From a virus: a stretch of 16,183 nucleotides of DNA. The notes under the pieces are model-generated. The model was given only the letters and a program-made list of their open reading frames with translations, had not been told where the DNA came from and made no database searches. The translations under genes were made by a program, and so were the position numbers. Positions within the stretch are counted from its first letter, which is position 1. Every line of letters starts with the position of its first letter. Shown here piece by piece: positions 5,629 through 12,949 of the stretch. Location of the stretch: the UHGV virus genome UHGV-0286155, one strand, 5' to 3'.

Positions 5629-5967
5629 CTATTTCCCTGAATTTACGACGAAACTGTTCGAGCGGGCTGAAGCACTCATGCTCATAGCCTTCGCGGAGGT
5701 AGATAACTCGTTGTGTTTCCGGCTCCCAACGAATGACTCTGACGGGCACTCCGTAGTGATCTTTGAACCAGCGGTTAACTTGTCGCAAAGGACTGTCTCC
5801 TTCTGCCGGTTGAAATCACCCACAGCCCACTCAGCAAAGCTGTGGGTTACAATTTCCCTGTCACCTGGTACATTAACTGCATAGCAATACTCCACCTTCG
5901 CTTTTCCACCCGGTACAGGAAGCGCAATCAGTTGCGAGCGACGGTAGTGTGTTGTTAAACTGTTCAT
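5629..5967 (-). CDS. hypothetical protein
   Basis: 112-aa ORF in the operon orientation. Its ATG overlaps the upstream stop as ATGA and it ends 10 nt before the initiator gene's RBS. No family recognised. A plus-strand 90-aa ORF (5612..5884, GTG start) overlaps it and cannot be excluded. Confidence 0.35.
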
Positions 5968-6572
5968 GCGTTAGTTTCTCCACAGTCACGACACGCCACG
6001 GCGCCCGGAGCTGCACACTCGCGGGCGTCATTACTTTCTGAAATGCAAAAGATTTTGTAGACCAGTGCTGCATGCTCCTGCAGCTTCGAAATTGAGAGAT
6101 ACAGCTCGTCGTTAATTGCTGTCTTCTCATGCGGTTCCACCACACCGTCTTCGATTGCCGAACGAATCTGTCTGGAATAACTGCCAATCTGTTCAATGAC
6201 TTCCAGCAGGCGCTGGTTAATATCGGCGTTGTCCACATCCTCGACGTCAGGAAGAGACACAAAGACGCCATTTGCAGACTGCGCCACAGCGTCAGCAATG
6301 AAGTGAGTTCCACCAGCACGTTGCAAAATCATTGCCCATCCCAGCGGGAAAATCTGATCGCCATCGGCACGAAGGCGGTTAAATAATGCGTTTTCTGTTA
6401 CATCCAGCCAGTCAGCTGCTTCAGCGTAACCACCCGGCAACGCTGCGATAGTTTTTCTGACAGCTTTCACGTACCACTCAGGCTGTTTTTCTACTTTCCA
6501 GTGATGCTTACCCACGGTTAGCCTCATCGTTCTGTGGTTTCTGTTAATCGATTTATCCATTAGATTTTTCAT
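5964..6572 (-). CDS. CII-position regulatory protein (putative)
   Basis: ORF directly downstream of the cro-like gene. Preferred start is the ATG at 6572 (MKNLMDK...), which slightly overlaps the cro stop; the track start at 6629 would overlap cro by 77 nt. Cys cluster at the C-terminus ([14 protein letters not shown]). Function assigned by synteny only. Confidence 0.4.
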
Positions 6573-6753
6573 AAAGCTCAGGTTTAAATGGCAACCGTCC
6601 GCAAGTTCTATATGCAGCTTCTGCTGCACGTCCTTTTGGAATTAACTGGCCCGGACGGTTTCGCCACTGATAAACGGCTTCAGTTGTTATGCCGAAAAAA
6701 GCAGCAACTTTCTCAATACTGCCGAAGTAGCTTTCGATATCGTCAGTTGTCAT
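6553..6753 (-). CDS. Cro-like HTH repressor (YdaS/Cro family)
   Basis: 66 aa. HTH segment VAAFFGITTEAVYQWRN..IPKGRAAE. Divergent from the CI-like gene across a 97-bp operator region. GGAGGG RBS. Confidence 0.6.
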   Translation of the reverse strand: MTTDDIESYFGSIEKVAAFFGITTEAVYQWRNRPGQLIPKGRAAEAAYRTCGRLPFKPELYEKSNG

Positions 6754-6850
6754 ACGCCCTCCAAGCTAAGTTTTATTAGATGCTAATTACAAATCTATCT
6801 TTGGTCAATAAAAACTAAGATTACTTAGCAATTCAAGAAATGGTGCTCCT
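6754..6850. promoter_or_regulatory. divergent immunity promoter/operator region (PR/PRM-like)
   Basis: Intergenic region between the cro-like and cI-like genes. Palindromes ATTAGATGCTAAT (6775-6787) and CTAAGATTACTTAG (6815-6828). On the minus strand TTGACC-N17-TAGCAT is a candidate PR, with the first palindrome overlapping its -10. Confidence 0.5.
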
Positions 6851-7477
6851 ATGGAAACGGTTGGTCAGCGTATAAAAGCTCTGAGAAGAGTTACCGGAAC
6901 GTCCCAGAAAGAATTGGGTAAATTTTGTGGAGTAAGCGACGTTGCTGTGGGGTACTGGGAGAAAGACATCAATACCCCTGGTGGGGAGGCACTTTCGAAA
7001 TTAGCGAAGTTCTTCAATACGTCAATAGATTACATTCTTTATGGTGCTGAGTTTGAAGGCAAACTCGTCACAAACATGCGCAGAGTTCCTGTAATATCGT
7101 GGGTTCAGGCTGGGCAGTTTACTGAGTGCAGGGCAGCAGAAGTGTTTAGTGAAGTGGACAAGTGGGTAGATACATCATTAAAGATTGGTGATAACTCATT
7201 TGCATTAGAGGTTAAAGGTGACTCCATGACTAACCCTAATGGCCTCCCAACAATACCAGAAGGCGCAACAGTGATTGTAGATCCAGATGCAGAACCTCGT
7301 CATGGAAAAATAGTCATCGCTCGACTTGATGGAACAAACGAAGCTACAGTAAAAAAATTAGTCATCGATGGCCCTCAAAAGTTTTTAGTGCCATTAAATC
7401 CTCGGTATCCCAACATCCCTATCAATGGTAATTGCCTTATCATTGGTGTAGTCAAAGGAGTTCAATACGAACTCTAA
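6851..7477 (+). CDS. CI-like prophage repressor (HTH_XRE + S24 LexA-type peptidase domain)
   Basis: N-terminal HTH (QRIKALRRVTGTSQKELGKFCGVSDVAVGYWE), an Ala-Gly candidate autocleavage site (VQAGQF), the Ser motif KGDSMTNP and a downstream Lys (ATVKKLV) typical of the S24 family. Confidence 0.8.
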   Translation: METVGQRIKALRRVTGTSQKELGKFCGVSDVAVGYWEKDINTPGGEALSKLAKFFNTSIDYILYGAEFEGKLVTNMRRVPVISWVQAGQFTECRAAEVFSEVDKWVDTSLKIGDNSFALEVKGDSMTNPNGLPTIPEGATVIVDPDAEPRHGKIVIARLDGTNEATVKKLVIDGPQKFLVPLNPRYPNIPINGNCLIIGVVKGVQYEL

Positions 7478-7661
7478 GACCTCTCTTCTCTAACTAAGGC
7501 ACCGAACTAAGAAAAGTTTGGTGTTTTCTCTTGCCACAATAACTAAGTTAAGTTAGATTTTATATCAAAGATAACGAACAGGCAGGACGCCCACGAAGTA
7601 GCCGCCGGTGGCGTATGAATGACCGGATGATTCGTTAAATACTATGTGTAAGAGAGCGCAA

Positions 7662-7865
7662 ATGAACCGTTATTTCACATGCTCGTTTTGTGGCGCAAAC
7701 GAGCTGCAGGCAAAAAAAATCATCGCCAAAGGCGGAAAAGATGAAGTTGCTATCTGCTCTGAGTGCGTAGTCTTGTGTGTCGGGGCATTAATCAATATCA
7801 GCACAACTATTCAGTTCACACCAAATGAGAATGCGCCTTTAGATGCGAGGAAATCTGGAGGTTAA
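7662..7865 (+). CDS. small protein with ClpX-type C4 zinc-binding domain
   Basis: YFTCSFCGANELQAKKIIAKGGKDEVAICSECVVLCVGAL aligns from memory with the ClpX N-domain [37 protein letters not shown], including both Cys pairs. Start chosen at the ATG at 7662; the track start is 7644. Confidence 0.55.
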   Translation: MNRYFTCSFCGANELQAKKIIAKGGKDEVAICSECVVLCVGALINISTTIQFTPNENAPLDARKSGG

Positions 7866-7924
7866 AGAACAAAATGAAAGTCCAGATTTTAAACAATAAC
7901 TGTGAAGTCGTTTGGGCGTAAAAC

Positions 7925-8131
7925 ATGACCGCGCGTAGACCAAGGGAGGAAAAAGTGGGAATAGTTAGAAATCAAGCAGATATATTGAAAATCAGCTCTG
8001 AATTGCTTGGAGTTTTGAAAAGTGAGCTCACCGCACATGGCATCGAGCCCACTGACGAAAATTTAAGTTGGGTTTTGTCGATTATTCAACAATCACTCAA
8101 GCCCAGCCTCAGCAAACTTTTTATCGAGTAG
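7925..8131 (+). CDS. hypothetical small protein
   Basis: 68-aa ORF in the operon orientation. No recognisable family; not N-like, as it lacks an Arg-rich motif. Confidence 0.25.
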   Translation: MTARRPREEKVGIVRNQADILKISSELLGVLKSELTAHGIEPTDENLSWVLSIIQQSLKPSLSKLFIE

Positions 8132-8284
8132 TGCTTCGAACTTATCGTAAAGCTTGCTTATGTCGTCTATCGGGTTTTCTGACGTACTGTAATTTTTATC
8201 TGATGTCATGGCAGCAGTCTGATATGCAGTGTGAGTCTTAACCGATAGTTGGAATAAATAAAGAATTTTTTCTTCTTTGGTCAT
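8093..8284 (-). CDS. hypothetical small protein, antisense to the operon
   Basis: The ATG at 8284 is preceded by an AAGGAAA RBS. 63 aa. Its 3' end overlaps the 7925..8131 ORF by 39 nt. Confidence 0.3.
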   Translation of the reverse strand: MTKEEKILYLFQLSVKTHTAYQTAAMTSDKNYSTSENPIDDISKLYDKFEALLDKKFAEAGLE

Positions 8285-8394
8285 AACTATTTCCTTCTTG
8301 GCTATATGAAAACACCAAGATACCACCGAGCCTGAAGTGGTGAAAAGACAGGCACATAACAGCTAAGTATTTTCAACCAGAGAGAATCCTTAGC

Positions 8395-8710
8395 GTTGTG
8401 GTGAATGCGGCTCAGCGCACGCGGGTTAAGGTTGAGGCTGACAGTCGACCTTCTGTGGATACCCACCCGCCTGGTGTGCAACCTTCGCCAGGCACCGGGA
8501 GGCACCCGGCACCACAACTTTATGCTGTGTGTAGTCTTGGCGGTACCAGCTTGTACCCTTGCTTCCGGCTGGTACCGTCCTTTTTACAAAACAGAGAAGA
8601 GCATCACCGGACGACGGGCTCATAACCCAATCCATCCGGGCGGCTGCCACCGCAGGTGTTCTTCTCTGTTTTGTGGAGAAACTAACCGCCCCTACGGGGG
8701 CATTTATGGA
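8395..8710. ncRNA. candidate structured non-coding RNA locus, strand undetermined
   Basis: GC-rich stretch carrying only mutually overlapping ORFs in several frames with implausible Arg/Cys/Pro-rich products. Nested inverted repeats: GGTACCAGC/GCTGGTACC (8542-8576), a 14-bp long-range stem ACAAAACAGAGAAG/CTTCTCTGTTTTGT (8586-8599 with 8661-8674), CCGGG-AGGCA-CCCGG (8495-8509), and GCCCC-UACG-GGGGC (8688-8701) followed by AUUUAU. Confidence 0.3.
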
Positions 8711-8798
8711 AATGTAATTGACTCAATAATCGCCGGACGGTGAGGGCCTCCTTTTACCCGAATTCAGCGCGGTGCAGCGCATATACGTGGAGAACAAA

Positions 8799-9335
8799 AT
8801 GTCATTTATTAAAACTTTTTCCGGGAAGCATTTTTATTATGACAGGATAAATAAAGACGACATCGTTATTAACGATATCGCGGTTTCCCTTTCAAATATC
8901 TGTCGCTTTGCAGGACATCTTTCACACTTCTACAGTGTCGCCCAACATGCGGTGCTTTGCAGCCAGCTAGTGCCACAGGAATTTGCTTTTGAAGCTTTAA
9001 TGCATGATGCAACAGAAGCATATTGCCAGGACATCCCCGCACCACTGAAACGACTTCTTCCTGACTATAAACGGATGGAAGAAAAAATAGACGCCGTAAT
9101 CCGTGAGAAATACGGGTTACCTCCTGTTATGAGCACGCCAGTGAAATATGCCGATCTCATTATGCTGGCAACCGAACGCCGCGATCTCGGGCTTGATGAT
9201 GGCTCTTTCTGGCCTGTACTGGAAGGTATCCCGGCAACAGAGATGTTCAAAGTGATTCCACAGGCACCGGGCCATGCCTACGGGATGTTTATGGAACGTT
9301 TTAACGAGTTATCGGAGTTACGCAAATGCGCATGA
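8799..9335 (+). CDS. HD-domain phosphohydrolase (YfdR-like)
   Basis: H...HD...D metal-binding pattern (SVAQHAVL, ALMHDATEA, CQDIPAPLKRLL). GGAGAA RBS before the ATG at 8799 gives a 178-aa product, matching from memory the length of E. coli YfdR. Confidence 0.7.
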   Translation: MSFIKTFSGKHFYYDRINKDDIVINDIAVSLSNICRFAGHLSHFYSVAQHAVLCSQLVPQEFAFEALMHDATEAYCQDIPAPLKRLLPDYKRMEEKIDAVIREKYGLPPVMSTPVKYADLIMLATERRDLGLDDGSFWPVLEGIPATEMFKVIPQAPGHAYGMFMERFNELSELRKCA

Positions 9336-9688
9336 ATGTTTTCGAAATGGAAGGGTTTCTTCGTGGGAGATGTGTACCGCGAGATCTGAAAGTGAATGAA
9401 ACAGATGCTGAATACCTGGTGCGTAAATTCGATGCGCTTGAAGCTAAATGTGCAGCACAGGAAAACAAAGTAATACCAGTGTCAACTGAACTGCCACCAG
9501 CAAATGAAAGTGTTTTGTTATTCGATGCTAACGGAGAAGGCTGGCTAATTGGCTGGCGTTCTCTCTGGTACACCTGGGGACAAAAAGAAACCGGAGAATG
9601 GCAGTGGACATTTCAGGTCGGGAGCCTTGAAAACGTCAATATCACTCACTGGGCAGTAATGCCAAAAGCACCGGAGGCTGGAGCATAA
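9326..9688 (+). CDS. small Trp-rich prophage protein (DUF551/YfdS-like)
   Basis: 120 aa with a Trp-rich C-terminal half (GWLIGWRSLWYTWGQKETGEWQWTF). Start overlaps the HD gene stop. Size and position after the HD gene parallel yfdS from memory. Confidence 0.4.
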   Translation: MRMNVFEMEGFLRGRCVPRDLKVNETDAEYLVRKFDALEAKCAAQENKVIPVSTELPPANESVLLFDANGEGWLIGWRSLWYTWGQKETGEWQWTFQVGSLENVNITHWAVMPKAPEAGA

Positions 9689-9993
9689 TGACCACTTTTA
9701 CCGACAAAGAACTGATTAAAGAAATTAAAGAGCGTATCAGCAGCCTTGACGTGCGAGACGATATTGAGCGCCGTGCTTATGAAATCGCACTCCTATCTCT
9801 GGAAGTAGAACCAGATGAACGCGAAGCTTATGAATTATTCATGGAAAAGCGTTTCGGTGACTTAGTAGATCGTCGGAGAGCAAAAAACGGCGATAACGAA
9901 TACATGGCATGGGATATGACTCTCGGTTGGATCGTCTGGCAGCAACGAGCAGGTCTCCATTTTTCAACAATGTCACAACAAGAGGTGAAATAA
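9688..9993 (+). CDS. hypothetical protein (YfdT-like by position)
   Basis: 101-aa ORF. The ATG overlaps the upstream stop as TAATG with a GGAG RBS. Acidic and helical in composition. Confidence 0.4.
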   Translation: MTTFTDKELIKEIKERISSLDVRDDIERRAYEIALLSLEVEPDEREAYELFMEKRFGDLVDRRRAKNGDNEYMAWDMTLGWIVWQQRAGLHFSTMSQQEVK

Positions 9994-10343
9994 TGGAGCC
10001 ATACAGCCTCACACTCGATGAGGCCTGTCATTTTCTCAAGATATCCAGACCGACTGCCATTAACTGGATACGCACAGGGCGTCTTCAGGCAACACGCAAA
10101 GATCCCACTAAGAATAAATCTCCTTACCTCACAACACGACAAGCCTGCATTGCGGCTCTTCAGTCTCCGCTGCATACTGTCCAGGTGAGCGCGGGTGATG
10201 GCATAACAGAGGAAAGAAAATGTCACTCTTCCGCAGAGGTGAAATATGGTACGCCAGTTTCACATTGCCGAACGGTAAAAGATTTAAACAGTCTCTTGGA
10301 ACAAAGGACAAAAGGCAGGCGACAGAACTCCATGACAAGCTAA
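9993..10343 (+). CDS. xis: excisionase (Xis), P22-like long form
   Basis: Start at the ATG at 9993 (GAGGTG RBS, TAATG overlap with the upstream stop). HTH-like [26 protein letters not shown]. 116 codons. Directly upstream of int, overlapping its 5' end by about 124 nt. Confidence 0.5.
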
Positions 10344-11383
10344 AGGCTGAAGCATGGCGGGTCAGCAAACTTGGTGAAATACCTGATATAACGTTCGAGG
10401 AAGCGTGTGTCAGGTGGCTTGAAGAGAAAGCACATAAAAAATCACTGGACGATGACAAAAGCCGGATCGGATTCTGGCTTCAACATTTCGCAGGAATGCA
10501 ACTAAGAGACATTACTGAATCAAAAATTTATTCAGCAATGCAGAAAATGACGAACCGGCGTCATGAGGAAAACTGGAAACTCAGGGCAGAAGCATGCAGA
10601 AAAAAAGGGAAACCTGTTCCAGAATACACGCCAAAACCAGCGTCCGTTGCAACGAAGGCTACGCATCTTTCATTTATAAAGGCCCTACTAAGAGCCGCAG
10701 AGCGTGAATGGAAAATGCTGGATAAGGCACCAATTATTAAAGTGCCCCAACCAAAGAATAAACGGATCCGCTGGCTGGAGCCCCATGAAGCACAAAGGCT
10801 GATTGATGAATGTCCGGAGCCATTAAAGTCTGTTGTTGAATTTGCACTGGCAACAGGCTTAAGACGCTCGAACATCATCAACCTTGAATGGCAACAAATA
10901 GATATGCAGCGCCGGGTGGCATGGATAAACCCGGAAGAGAGTAAATCAAACCGCGCAATTGGCGTTGCGCTGAATGATACTGCATGTCGCGTATTGAAAA
11001 AACAAATCGGGAATCATCACCGTTGGGTATTTGTGTACAAGGAAAGCTGTACCAAACCAGACGGAACGAAAGCGCCAACAGTCAGGAAGATGCGGTATGA
11101 CGCAAACACAGCCTGGAAAGCGGCGCTGAGACGGGCTGGTATTGATGATTTCAGATTTCACGACTTGAGACACACATGGGCAAGTTGGCTGGTTCAAGCC
11201 GGAGTCCCGTTGTCAGTGTTACAGGAAATGGGAGGCTGGGAGTCTATCGAAATGGTTCGTCGATATGCTCACCTTGCACCTAATCACCTTACCGAACACG
11301 CACGGCAAATAGACTCGATCCTAAACCCATCGGTCCCAAATTTGTCCCAGTCAAAAAATAAGGAAGGTACTAATGATGTGTAA
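10220..11383 (+). CDS. int: tyrosine integrase, lambda/P22 family
   Basis: 387 aa. N-terminal arm-binding domain [27 protein letters not shown]. Catalytic signature residues in GLRRSN, HDLRHT and the Tyr in VRRYAHL. The gene ends 14 nt before the tRNA-Thr 3' segment. Confidence 0.9.
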
Positions 11384-11397
11384 CTTATTGATTTAAA

Positions 11398-11446
11398 TGG
11401 TGCCGATAATAGGAGTCGAACCTACGACCTTCGCATTACGAATGCG
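11398..11446 (-). tRNA. partial tRNA-Thr(CGU): 3' 49 nt only, att core
   Basis: The reverse complement CGCATTCGTAATGCGAAGGTCGTAGGTTCGACTCCTATTATCGGCACCA matches the anticodon arm through the 3' CCA of enterobacterial thrW as I recall it. The D-arm and 5' acceptor strand are absent; sequence beyond 11446 is unrelated. Confidence 0.75.
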
Positions 11447-11629
11447 AAGTTTTTATATTTTAACTGCTTGAACAACCATCAGAAATCACAAATTTATCAT
11501 TTTAAATCATAATATTAAAACAAAAAACCTGTTGATGTAAATTGATGAGTGTTGATGTTTATCCTTTCAATTTACTTACACCAGCCGTTACATTACTGTA
11601 AACCGTAATCCCCAACAGGAACCCTAAAA

Positions 11630-12949
11630 ATGGCGCTTTCAAGACAAAAACTAACCTTCGAACGAATTCGAAGATTTACTTTACCTGAAGGGAAAAACCA
11701 AGTTTTCCTTTGGGATACGGACGTAACAAGCTTGGCATGTCGAGCAACTCGTGGAGCAAAAGCCTTTGTATTCCAAAGCCTGTATGCGGGAAAAACCCTT
11801 CGCATGACCATTGGCAACATTAACGATTGGAGGATTGATGATGCGAGGGCCGAAGCCAGGCGACTGCAAACATTAATCGATACTGGGATAGATCCGCGTA
11901 TAGCTAAGGCGGAAAAAATTGCTGAAGCGGAATCACAGCAGGCTGAATCTCGTAAAACGAAGGCAACCTTTTCAAGCGCTTGGGAAGATTATCTTGATGA
12001 ATTGAGAACCGGAATCAGCGCAAAAACTAAACGCCCCTACTCTGCACGCTACATTGCCGATCACGTTAACTTGTCCAGTCGTGGAGGCGAAAGTAAAAAA
12101 AGAGGCCGGGGCTCAACCTCACCTGGGCCACTGGCTAGCCTGCTCGACCGACCATTATCAGAACTAACACCAGAGAACATTGCCGAATGGCTAAGTACAG
12201 AGAGACAAAATCGGCCTACCGTCACTGCTCATGCCTACCGTCTGTTGCGTGCATTCATCAAATGGGCTAATTACCAGAAAAAATATCAGGGAATAATCCA
12301 TGGCGATCTTGCACAAGATCATAACGTGAGAAAAATGGTTCCAATATCAGCGAGCAAAGCGGGAGATTGCTTACAAAAAGAACAGCTCAAAAGCTGGTTC
12401 AGTGCCGTGCGTAGCCTCAATAATCCCATTGCATCAGCCTATCTCCAAGTGCTTTTGCTCACCGGTGCACGGCGTGAAGAAATTTCCTCACTTCGCTGGT
12501 CTGACATAGATTTCAAATGGTCAAGCATGAGAATTAAAGACAAGATCGAAGGCGAGCGAATTATCCCCCTCACTCCCTATGTTTCTTACTTGTTACGCTC
12601 ACTGATGGAGATCCCTAATCGTGGTACAAACGAGGAGAATTGGGTTTTCAGAAGTAACAGCAAAAGTGGCAAAATTATTGAACCGCGTTCAGCACATAAT
12701 AGAGCATTAACTCGCGCGGAGTTACCACATATCAGCTTGCACGGATTGCGCCGTAGTTTTGGGACCCTCGCTGAATGGGTCGAAGTACCAACAGGTATTG
12801 TTGCGCAGATTATGGGCCATAAGCCTAGCGCTCTTGCTGAAAAGCACTATCGCCGCCGTCCATTAGATTTGCTAAGAAAATGGCATGAAAAAGTTGAATT
12901 ATGGATCTTAGAAGAAGCAAAAATAAAAAACAACGTTGATAAGCGTTGA
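11630..12949 (+). CDS. tyrosine integrase, P4/CP4-type
   Basis: 439 aa. The N-terminal pattern (LTFERIRRFTLPEGKNQVFLWDTDVTSLACR...GIDPR) is typical of P4-like integrases. Catalytic motifs LTGARREE, HGLRRSFGT and the Tyr in AEKHYRR. Begins about 180 nt from the tRNA fragment. Confidence 0.85.
   Translation: MALSRQKLTFERIRRFTLPEGKNQVFLWDTDVTSLACRATRGAKAFVFQSLYAGKTLRMTIGNINDWRIDDARAEARRLQTLIDTGIDPRIAKAEKIAEAESQQAESRKTKATFSSAWEDYLDELRTGISAKTKRPYSARYIADHVNLSSRGGESKKRGRGSTSPGPLASLLDRPLSELTPENIAEWLSTERQNRPTVTAHAYRLLRAFIKWANYQKKYQGIIHGDLAQDHNVRKMVPISASKAGDCLQKEQLKSWFSAVRSLNNPIASAYLQVLLLTGARREEISSLRWSDIDFKWSSMRIKDKIEGERIIPLTPYVSYLLRSLMEIPNRGTNEENWVFRSNSKSGKIIEPRSAHNRALTRAELPHISLHGLRRSFGTLAEWVEVPTGIVAQIMGHKPSALAEKHYRRRPLDLLRKWHEKVELWILEEAKIKNNVDKR

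Follow-up and report, generated by a model that had tools for sequence, protein, structure and literature searches.

A putative compound non-coding unit heading the yfdR-xis-int block of SfII/SfV-type prophages: an STnc100-like RNA with its terminator, followed by a tRNA-like element with an initiator-tRNA anticodon arm

The stretch of DNA analyzed here (virus genome UHGV-0286155 of the UHGV collection; 16,183 nucleotides [nt], hereafter the window) represents a lambdoid prophage of the SfII/SfV type from Escherichia coli or Shigella, and it contains, between the immunity region and the integration genes, a structured non-coding locus (positions 8395-8710, + strand) that is the subject of this report. 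The surrounding segment from 8300 to 8800 is 98.6% identical to Shigella phage SfII and has matches in thousands of E. coli chromosomes. The locus opens a conserved leftward block whose last genes are xis-int: the nearest protein gene on its downstream side encodes a yfdR-type HD 5'-deoxynucleotidase (8799-9335, +; Pfam, PHROG, and RefSeq/SfII annotation) and is followed by a DUF551 gene (9326-9688, +), xis (9909-10343, +), and int (10220-11383, +), all three assigned by Pfam and PHROG. On its other side, the locus is divergent from a 63-amino-acid gene (8093-8284, −; phrog_2605, E = 1.4e-33; annotated in SfII and RefSeq). The GC content is 0.56 for 8350-8649 versus 0.38-0.45 in both flanks, and the + strand of 8360-8712 folds with −156.9 kcal/mol (z = −7.3, equaled by none of 100 shuffles), compared with −143.7 kcal/mol (z = −4.2) for the − strand. 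An earlier reading of the bare sequence, referred to below as the original prediction, had described the locus as GC-rich and highly structured, which these values bear out. It had, however, treated the stretch as a single element, and this view does not hold: the locus is a mosaic of at least two unrelated non-coding RNA modules on the + strand, which we call A (8395-8585) and B (8586-8674), the second of which carries the anticodon arm of the initiator tRNA.

The original prediction had also seen no credible open reading frame (ORF) in this region, and the homologues agree. The longest ORF (8405-8743, 112 amino acids), annotated as a protein in SfII (SfII_35), matches no Pfam or PHROG family; counted from the homologous ATG, its length ranges from 7 to >119 amino acids among 57 unique homologues, and PGAP labels it as frameshifted in one other strain. 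Variable sites in the homologues are spread over the three codon positions as 7/5/7, with 7 synonymous and 14 non-synonymous changes. Given the unconserved frame, the lack of a family, and the flat distribution of variation over the codon positions, we conclude that the 112-amino-acid ORF is not a gene. This search for coding-type substitution patterns had been proposed together with an Rfam covariance-model scan and comparative folding; the latter two were likewise carried out, and yielded an STnc100 match in module A, compensatory pairs in module B, and covariation of the closing helix of module A, as detailed below. At the gathering thresholds, Rfam reports only a tRNA remnant in the window, and several weak matches (DicF, MIR1094, ar7, and others) were discarded, all lying far under threshold.

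Module A opens with a core domain of five hairpins (8395-8518, +) that is closed by the pairing of GUUGUGGUG (8395-8403) with CACCACAAC (8510-8518). Its last hairpin, H5, reads CCGGG-AGGCA-CCCGG (8495-8509), and the minimum free energy (MFE) of the core amounts to −56.6 kcal/mol (z = −3.1). In a permissive scan, the Rfam model RF02076 (STnc100) aligned to 8365-8588 over its entire length (model positions 1-206 of 206) with 43.4 bits, corresponding to an E value of 4.7e-8 in a local search of 700 nt and of 1.1e-6 in the whole window. The match rests on the two invariant blocks of the family, UGGUGAAU on the 5' side (8398-8406) and CACCGGGAGGCACCCGGCACCA on the 3' side (8493-8514), which pair to close the core and form the closing helix of the MFE structure. 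A 20-mer from the 3' block, CCGGGAGGCACCCGGCACCA, occurs in >120 viral contigs with very diverse interiors, and the closing helix covaries, one of its pairs being G-C in 40, A-U in 24, and G-U in 8 of 82 unique cores.

The core is followed by a single-stranded linker, UUUAUGCUGUGUGUAGUCUU (8519-8538, +), which is unpaired in both the MFE and the centroid structure. Its motif GCUGUGUGUAGUCUU is kept in the relatives L242 and phiNP, which have unrelated A interiors, and in L239, which has lost the A core; such conservation across alleles is the pattern expected of a small RNA (sRNA) seed, suggesting a seed-like role. Module A then ends in a 13-bp stem (8539-8551/8567-8579) with a 15-nt loop, followed by a C and five U residues at 8580-8585, and thus in an intrinsic terminator (8539-8585, +; ΔG = −23 kcal/mol, z = −4.8), which aligns with the terminator of the STnc100 model. 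The original prediction had recognized this stem, with a length of 9-12 bp at 8542-8576 that is corrected by the coordinates above. The same succession of core, variable linker of 20-50 nt, and hairpin with U-run is seen in almost all of 87 unique family members. These features place module A, as a divergent member, in the STnc100/PasD family of prophage RNAs. The earlier suggestion of a prophage sRNA fits the first half of the locus, with its full-length STnc100 match and terminator.

Within module A, the 5' strand of hairpin 2, AAGGUUGA (8428-8435), can pair not only with its partner UCGACCUU (8445-8452) but also with CAACCUU (8479-8485) in the hairpin 4 loop, and an alternative pairing or a pseudoknot could therefore form. 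The weak DicF-like match mentioned above covers 8526-8580 (19.4 bits, E = 0.13); the terminator stem starts with GGCGGUACCAG, and DicF has GGCGGUAUCAG.

STnc100 and PasD1/PasD2 have been described as related prophage sRNAs that are associated with Hfq, abundant in lysogens, confirmed by northern blotting, and unassigned in function (bioRxiv 10.64898/2026.05.13.724894). Many members of the A family lie behind a strong promoter, TTGACn-N5-GAATG...TAAATT, with +1 at the G that precedes UGGUGAAU. Ten such promoter-proximal loci were sampled for their neighbors. The upstream ORF is a Q antiterminator gene in seven of them (7/8 of the loci in which that ORF has a family match), the Q genes falling into three Pfam families (PF03589, PF06323, and PF06530/DUF1133), and a holin and an endolysin were confirmed downstream by Pfam for one locus. 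The copy in 933W is located just past stxB2, ahead of a sialate esterase gene. With a Q gene upstream, a promoter, and a terminator, the promoter-proximal members sampled represent promoter-to-terminator leaders of late operons, in the slot of the lambda 6S RNA, and constitutive transcription from the late promoter that stops at the terminator would explain the abundance of the family in lysogens. The window's module A is without this late-promoter layout (TTGACn-N5-GAATG...TAAATT, +1 at GUGGUGAAU).

The family shows several further peculiarities. Module A comes in at least five alleles whose interiors (94-135 nt) are unrelated but lie between constant boundaries, GUUGUGGU(G/A)A ... CCACCACAAC (L132, L134, L143, L153, L242, and L245), which has the appearance of cassette-like exchange within a fixed closing helix. 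Some viral contigs hold two A-family RNAs in tandem on one strand, spaced by ~484 nt (L007, L018, L036, L054, and L075), ~920-950 nt (L010 and L022), or 267 nt (L081). Away from late promoters, most A alleles have a boxA-like motif, UGCUCU(U/C)(U/A/C), 2-4 nt 5' of the closing helix (L244 2570-2590, L153 ~6100, L127, L134, L032, and L245 [upstream of GUUGUGG]); it reads UGCUCUUUCC in Pantoea phage PA-1 and L153, is partial in ST64B (ACUCUUAUC), and is degenerate in the window (AAUCCUUAGC). This motif could recruit NusB/NusE to shield a long untranslated leader from Rho.

Module B (8586-8674, +) is a conserved, tRNA-like three-way junction composed of a 20-bp duplex (8586-8605/8655-8674), an arm (8607-8639), and a short hairpin of 4 bp (8640-8653), with an MFE of −45.5 kcal/mol (z = −7.3). 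The long-range helix that closes 8586-8674 had been noticed before, at a length of 14 bp, which falls short of the actual 20 bp. At the tip of the arm, GGG (8616-8618), CUCAUAA (8619-8625), and CCC (8626-8628) fold in the MFE structure into a 3-bp GGG/CCC stem with a 7-nt loop, which contains the anticodon CAU at 8621-8623. All 14 nt of CGGGCUCAUAACCC (8615-8628) are identical to positions 28-41 of the E. coli tRNA-fMet gene metZ, i.e., to its anticodon stem-loop. The three consecutive G-C pairs that are a mark of initiator tRNAs are present in the B arm. We know of no described bacterial or phage mimic that copies the initiator tRNA arm, and no description of an initiator-tRNA mimic or decoy in phages was found in the literature; as far as we could find, module B is an undescribed tRNA-like element defined by the anticodon arm of the initiator tRNA.

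This element is frequent. It was detected in 2490 of 5426 complete E. coli genomes (~46%), in up to five copies each, either unannotated or inside a “hypothetical protein,” and a 24-mer around its arm occurs in >120 viral contigs. In a set with one genome per species, the arm is found in six species, all of them Enterobacteriaceae, so that there is no deep phylogeny from which covariation could be drawn. Two types can be told apart. Type 1, to which the window's copy belongs, is always located behind the terminator of an A-type RNA and closed by the long duplex. It starts 1-2 nt past the U-run of the upstream terminator in every copy (one nucleotide in the window), which leaves no room for a promoter of its own. 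In the type 1 alignment (A1), 99% of the positions expected to pair are paired, three compensatory pairs fall in the long helix, and the G·U pairs favor the + strand. Type 2 occurs in phages of the Klebsiella, Enterobacter, and Raoultella type, 6 nt past a tRNA's CCA; here, the closing helix is acceptor-like, has 6 bp, and leads into (A/G)CCA, and in 14 of 16 loci the element forms the last unit of an array of Asn/Arg(UCU)/Thr/Phe/Met tRNAs. An acceptor helix with NCCA is thus a property of the type 2 relatives only, the window's B having its 20-bp clamp and no CCA.

When the two types are aligned with each other (A3), 97.6% of the pairs are formed, with four compensatory pairs in the closing helix and in parts of the arm stem. 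The arm itself is nearly unchanged between the types, and the closing helix and the third hairpin are replaced or covary; in Pantoea phage PA-1, the arm of B survives alone. Among the copies that were fetched via module A or by BLAST, and were therefore not selected on the arm, 19 have the exact arm, and the variants are A37U (twice), C39U, C40U, and C39A. The anticodon CAU and U33 are unchanged in this subset, and the stem changes are mostly compatible with wobble pairing. A tail, CCCUCUACCUUGGGACCAUUACGGCUACCGCGCCGUC...CCCGCCUUGAGCGGGUUUUUUU, directly follows the type 2 B of Klebsiella phage GZ7 (L130 2580-2665) and also an A allele in L153 (6206-6290); judging by this common tail, a single sRNA-like 3' part seems to accept A or B alike as its structured 5' domain.

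Programs that search for genuine tRNAs do not recognize module B: ARAGORN calls no tRNA in the window or at the type 2 copies, and Rfam, tRNA model included, returns no match at B even at E ≤ 10 and none at a type 2 copy. We also considered whether B is a fragment of the host tRNA-fMet gene, of the kind left at attachment (att) sites, and rejected this, as the flanks are unmatched and the identity is confined to the 14-nt arm. The real att remnant of this prophage is that of thrW (11401-11473, −; Rfam). There, the Rfam “tRNA” match scores 36 bits, ARAGORN is negative, and the sequence corresponds to the 3' part of thrW, including the att core of the P22/SfV type, ATGCGAAGGTCGTAGGTTCGACT, which marks the end of the prophage. 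Directly behind this remnant lies a second integrase gene (11630-12949), indicating that another island was inserted at the same tRNA.

A counterpart of the whole arrangement is found in E. coli K-12, where the coding sequence (CDS) ymfH (b1142) of the e14 element represents the same A-terminator-B unit, with an A module 92.7% identical to that of the window, upstream of xisE-intE (L246 5570-5881). It is the first “gene” of the ymfH-xisE-intE operon. Its module A is degenerate, H5 being mutated to CCGGG-GGCA-CCCGA. A further alternative of the original prediction, a processing or regulatory leader for the downstream genes, is compatible with the position of the locus directly upstream of yfdR...xis-int, as well as with that of the e14 counterpart. 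A member of the e14 induction (YmfT) regulon, ymfH has a promoter that showed activity under just one of the conditions of a reporter survey (PMC12133099). The retron-Sen2 toxin was reported to be triggered by a clone that over-expresses ymfH (bioRxiv 10.1101/2020.06.22.160242); since the ymfH ORF almost certainly yields no conserved protein, one may speculate that the phenotype of this clone comes from the RNA.

Downstream of B, a junction segment (8675-8717, +) comprises a Shine-Dalgarno-like GGAG (8675-8678), the hairpin GCCCC-UACG-GGGGC (8688-8701), and a mini-ORF, AUG GAA AUG UAA (8706-8717). The hairpin and the AUUUAU behind it had been taken for a likely transcript 3' end. Both are present, but the evidence for a 3' end is not convincing: the hairpin is energetically ordinary (z = −1.5, with 18 of 200 shuffles as good), and a terminator scan flagged it on the − strand only, the tail on the + strand being AUUUAUGG, a poor U-run. 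It is a weak terminator that lies outside both RNA modules. The same hairpin, together with AUUUAUGGAAA, is also located behind yfdQ in the K-12 element CPS-53. SfV, ST64B, and most relatives instead have GGAGAAAC behind B, and then a different hairpin and the start of yfdP. The window and SfII are without the genes yfdP-yfdQ that SfV, ST64B, and CPS-53 have between B and yfdR, and the junction looks like the scar of a yfdP-yfdQ deletion, in which the hairpin arrived with the yfdR side. In the full version, GGAG, a 16-nt hairpin, and the AUG of yfdP succeed each other (L128 3373-3410; L126 8870-8900), which looks like a split ribosome-binding site whose parts are joined by the hairpin.

Upstream of A, the divergent intergenic region (8285-8394, +) holds a candidate promoter and an inverted repeat. 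A conserved block common to SfV, SfII, and e14 starts at ~8319-8323. The candidate promoter is sigma-70-like and weak: AAGACA (8345-8350), a 17-nt spacer, and TATTTT (8368-8373), with 8 of 12 matches, identified by eye. The inverted repeat GCUAAG (8362-8367)/CUUAGC (8389-8394) abuts the closing helix of A (−12.3 kcal/mol, z = −4.6); the inverted repeat found at the equivalent place in ST64B is a different one. The only rightward match of a promoter scan is situated at 7531-7559, 800 nt upstream and with a convergent gene in between. This is likely the early-left promoter (TTGCCA-17-TAGATT), which is overlapped by AACTAAG repeats (7492, 7505, and 7541). The AACTAAG half-site also builds CTAAGATTACTTAG between cro and cI (6815-6828), and the AACTAAG-type sites at 7492-7559 and 6766-6828 probably represent OL and OR, the operators belonging to this type of immunity. 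The window has 23 CTAAG/CTTAG sites, 9 of which fall within 6500-8500.

Between these sites and the locus, two small genes with PHROG families lie on the + strand (7644-7865 and 7955-8131). The second of them and the 63-amino-acid gene at 8093-8284 (−), each with its own PHROG family, are convergent with an overlap of 39 nt, and transcription from the promoter at 7531 would collide with this leftward gene before reaching module A. The immunity region proper contains, by Pfam and PHROG scans, genes for a cII-like protein (5964-6629, −), cro (6553-6753, −), and a cI-type repressor (6851-7477, +), and a Q antiterminator of the Phage_antitermQ family (616-1008, −; Pfam/PHROG) is encoded further away. 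The original prediction had stated that the operon contains no N-like antiterminator gene, in agreement with the Pfam and PHROG scans of the neighboring ORFs.

Taken together, we estimate a probability of roughly 60% that we are dealing with a compound non-coding unit that opens the yfdR...xis-int block of SfII/SfV/e14-type prophages and consists of an sRNA with its terminator (module A) and an anticodon-arm mimic that is transcribed by read-through (module B). Under this reading, A would be transcribed from a promoter within 8285-8394, and most transcripts would stop at 8585, giving an RNA of ~190-240 nt. By analogy with its Hfq-bound relatives, this RNA may act in trans via the linker, and its terminator would hold down the expression of what lies downstream, xis and int among it. 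Any transcript passing the terminator at 8585 runs straight into B, whose 20-bp duplex might be cleaved as a substrate of the RNase III type, freeing B from the read-through transcript.

The function of B may be that of a decoy, a mimic, or a processing element. As a mimic of the initiator-tRNA anticodon arm, its most likely role would be that of a decoy or competitor for a factor that recognizes this arm. Candidate partners are VapC-type nucleases that cut tRNA-fMet, which are the most concrete, the P site of the 30S subunit with initiation factor 3 (IF3), and methionyl-tRNA synthetase (MetRS). A role during lytic growth is in keeping with the timing, given that type 2 copies belong to late tRNA arrays and type 1 copies to the left operon. 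Only tentatively, then, do we propose that B and its array relatives are a phage mimic that protects or reprograms translation initiation, early from the left operon or late from the arrays, by acting as a sponge for a defense nuclease whose cleavage of tRNA-fMet is lethal to the cell (such as VapC-type PIN toxins) or by way of the 30S P site/IF3 or MetRS.

Several observations weigh against the compound unit and its parts. With respect to A, the 43.4 bits of the STnc100 match, significant as it is, are 3.6 bits short of the Rfam gathering score of 47; the first hairpin deviates from the STnc100 consensus; and the terminator has an unusually large loop (15 nt). There is no convincing promoter upstream of A, as a consensus promoter scan with a cut-off of 9/12 found nothing in 8285-8800. 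The inverted repeat at 8362-8394 could be an RNA hairpin, which would place the start of the transcript further upstream, or a DNA operator. The boxA-like motif beside A in the relatives hints at a role in transcription elongation for which the compound unit has no need. With respect to B, the copy covers only three of the five base pairs in the anticodon stem of tRNA-fMet. Furthermore, most homologues were retrieved with the arm sequence as query, and the invariance of the arm is therefore partly circular. Finally, the loop of the e14 copy reads UUAAUAA and thus has a changed anticodon, suggesting either that decay is tolerated or that the anticodon is non-essential; given that module A of e14 is damaged as well, we take both changes as decay in a cryptic prophage.

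Among the alternatives, it is possible that B is the vestige of a phage tRNA-like gene that has been kept as a processing site, a stabilizer, or an insulator between sRNA and mRNA, the identity of its arm having no present function. Such a history would agree with the perfect 20-bp duplex, which among the parts of type 1 has the best support and the most covariation, with the loss from type 1 of the acceptor-like end and NCCA of type 2, with an e14 copy that keeps the fold despite its altered anticodon, and with the constant placement of B between an upstream terminator, which it abuts, and a Shine-Dalgarno sequence. Yet the segment best conserved between types 1 and 2 is the arm, including its internal loop and CUCAUAA, and the closing helix and third hairpin are replaced or covary. 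The persistence of the arm alone in Pantoea phage PA-1 likewise speaks against a vestige, and e14, with its damaged A module, is a decaying cryptic prophage.

It is more doubtful that A and its terminator are mainly a cis-acting attenuator of the excision and early-left genes, which would be opened by the prophage's own Q protein (616-1008, −) or by an induced factor and which would release the RNA as a by-product. The family is tied to Q-dependent late promoters, with Q genes as 7 of the 10 sampled upstream ORFs, the window encodes a Q protein, and K-12 ymfH-xisE-intE, included in the e14 induction (YmfT) regulon, is not expressed under most conditions (PMC12133099). The window's copy, however, is without the late-promoter layout of the Q-linked members, and a Q site acting at the DNA level does not readily account for a strongly conserved RNA domain and linker that accompany three unrelated Q families; moreover, the trans-acting relatives bind Hfq and many mRNAs. 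An attenuator opened by Q or another factor is nevertheless a more serious rival than an antitermination RNA of the put type, and it is compatible with A acting in trans as well.

The original prediction had put forward such an antitermination RNA as one possibility, and we consider it unlikely that A and/or B remain attached to the transcribing polymerase and, in cis, carry it past the terminator at 8585 and those further on, in the style of HK022 put or of a nut/rrn boxA complex, so that yfdR...xis-int could be expressed without N. The position is suggestive: A heads a long operon on the same strand, a terminator separates it from the genes, no promoter-like site was found in 8586-8800, and there is no N-like gene. 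In the relative L194, an A allele lies right after an operator-flanked TTGACA/TACATT promoter, which is the putL arrangement, and most alleles away from a late promoter have the boxA-like UGCUCU(U/C) directly 5' of the closing helix. A segment of the window, AGCGCACGCGGGUUAAGGUUGA (8413-8435), is marginally similar to putL stem II, AGCGC-GGCGGGUUCAGGAUGA (22 nt; 3 of 300 shuffles). The corresponding patch in HK022 (L123 4265-4286, −) is the essential GCGGG segment of stem II, the structural context in the window is different, and other members of the A family carry GCGGGUUCAGG exactly. On the other hand, neither A, with 124 nt and five hairpins, nor B, with its three-way junction, has the architecture of a two-stem put site of ~70 nt. 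The match to putR is not significant, and the HK022 genome is without any A or B motif. The window contains no second STnc100-like or GUUGUGGUGA...CACCACAAC element, and none downstream of the rightward promoter. As for a nut site, the motif of the window is degenerate, with AAUCCUUAGC against the boxA sequences CGCUCUUA and UGCUCUUUA, and no N-like protein was seen among the ORFs of the operon. Lastly, the members of the family normally meet their own terminator within 20-50 nt, and STnc100 and PasD accumulate as terminated sRNAs; discrete terminated RNAs in lysogens are the opposite of the outcome expected for an RNA that makes polymerase ignore the next terminator. With Q genes of three families upstream of most of the sampled promoter-proximal members, a protein antiterminator would also be available there.

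That the region encodes a 112-amino-acid protein (“hypothetical protein” in SfII, YmfH in K-12) is highly improbable despite the CDS annotated in several records and the retron-Sen2 phenotype of the over-expressed ymfH clone (bioRxiv 10.1101/2020.06.22.160242), which is equally attributable to RNA, because the frame is unconserved and, in another strain, a frameshifted pseudogene, the ORF has no Pfam or PHROG family and no excess of third-position substitutions, and it straddles two RNA modules that recombine independently.

If the proposal for B holds true, it would be a new class of RNA counter-defense or takeover element, one that ~46% of the complete E. coli genomes contain and that K-12 has as ymfH. 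A very widespread tRNA-like element has come to light in a setting in which the initiator tRNA is a known target of enterobacterial toxins, and a B module that serves as a decoy or as a ligand of the ribosome or synthetase would add an RNA-based layer to the conflict between phage and host over translation initiation. For genome annotation, the consequence is that a stretch widely listed as a “hypothetical protein” (YmfH in K-12, SfII_35 in SfII) is no protein gene but two RNA modules. For the STnc100/PasD family, the sampled promoter-proximal members suggest an origin as Q-controlled leaders of late operons, which would account for their abundance in lysogens, and the variant in the window heads an excision operon instead of a late one.

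Compared with known systems, module A is closest to STnc100/PasD, the prophage-borne sRNAs of Salmonella, enteropathogenic E. coli (EPEC), and enterohemorrhagic E. coli (EHEC), with which it shares the alignment to the full model, the 5' (U)GGUGAAU and 3' CACCGGGAGGCACCCGGCACCA blocks, a multi-hairpin core closed at its ends, an unpaired linker, and a Rho-independent terminator. It differs from STnc100 in its first hairpin, which is GCGGC...GC-CGC instead of CCCCU...AGGGG, and from the family in its location, as it is part of a leftward xis-int operon and not located after Q, after stx, or before lysis genes; it is also without a strong promoter at +1 and fused to module B. Lambda 6S RNA and StxS are short transcripts of pR' that end at tR' and are read through in the presence of Q. 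The promoter-proximal members of the A family occupy the identical slot (Q gene, strong promoter, RNA, terminator, and lysis genes), and StxS, such a leader, was reportedly found by Sy et al. in 2020 to be capable of acting as a trans-acting sRNA. The window's A, in contrast, is not at a late promoter, and the likeness is one of position, with no relation in sequence expected.

The put RNAs of HK022 comprise ~70 nt, with two stems and a triple helix, are found once per early operon, and bind the zinc-binding domain of the β′ subunit, suppressing the next terminators. Like putL and putR, module A is a promoter-proximal structured RNA of an N-less lambdoid phage upstream of terminators, and it shares one 22-nt patch with putL stem II; unlike them, it has five hairpins, is present in a single copy, and belongs to a family seen as terminated RNAs. 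With DicF of the Qin prophage, which is cut out of a longer transcript, A has in common that it is an sRNA within a prophage early operon whose 3'-terminal terminator hairpin starts with GGCGGUA(U/C)CAG, but the match is far below threshold, and DicF is without a large 5' domain.

For module B, the parallels lie among tRNAs and their mimics. Phage tRNA arrays may, according to one proposal, compensate for anticodon nucleases of the host. Type 2 B stands at the end of such arrays, although, in contrast to the array tRNAs, B is without a D arm or a T-loop motif and is rejected by tRNA models. The hosts belong to the enterobacteria, among which VapC toxins specific for tRNA-fMet are present; Winther and Gerdes reportedly found in 2011 that VapC of Shigella and Salmonella cuts tRNA-fMet in the anticodon loop. 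The operator of E. coli thrS and the viral tRNA-like structures resemble B in that a non-tRNA RNA presents an anticodon arm or a tRNA-like shape to a tRNA-binding factor; B is set apart from them by the initiator arm that it copies and by its occurrence both as a CCA-ended member of tRNA arrays and as an operon-embedded form clamped by 20 bp.

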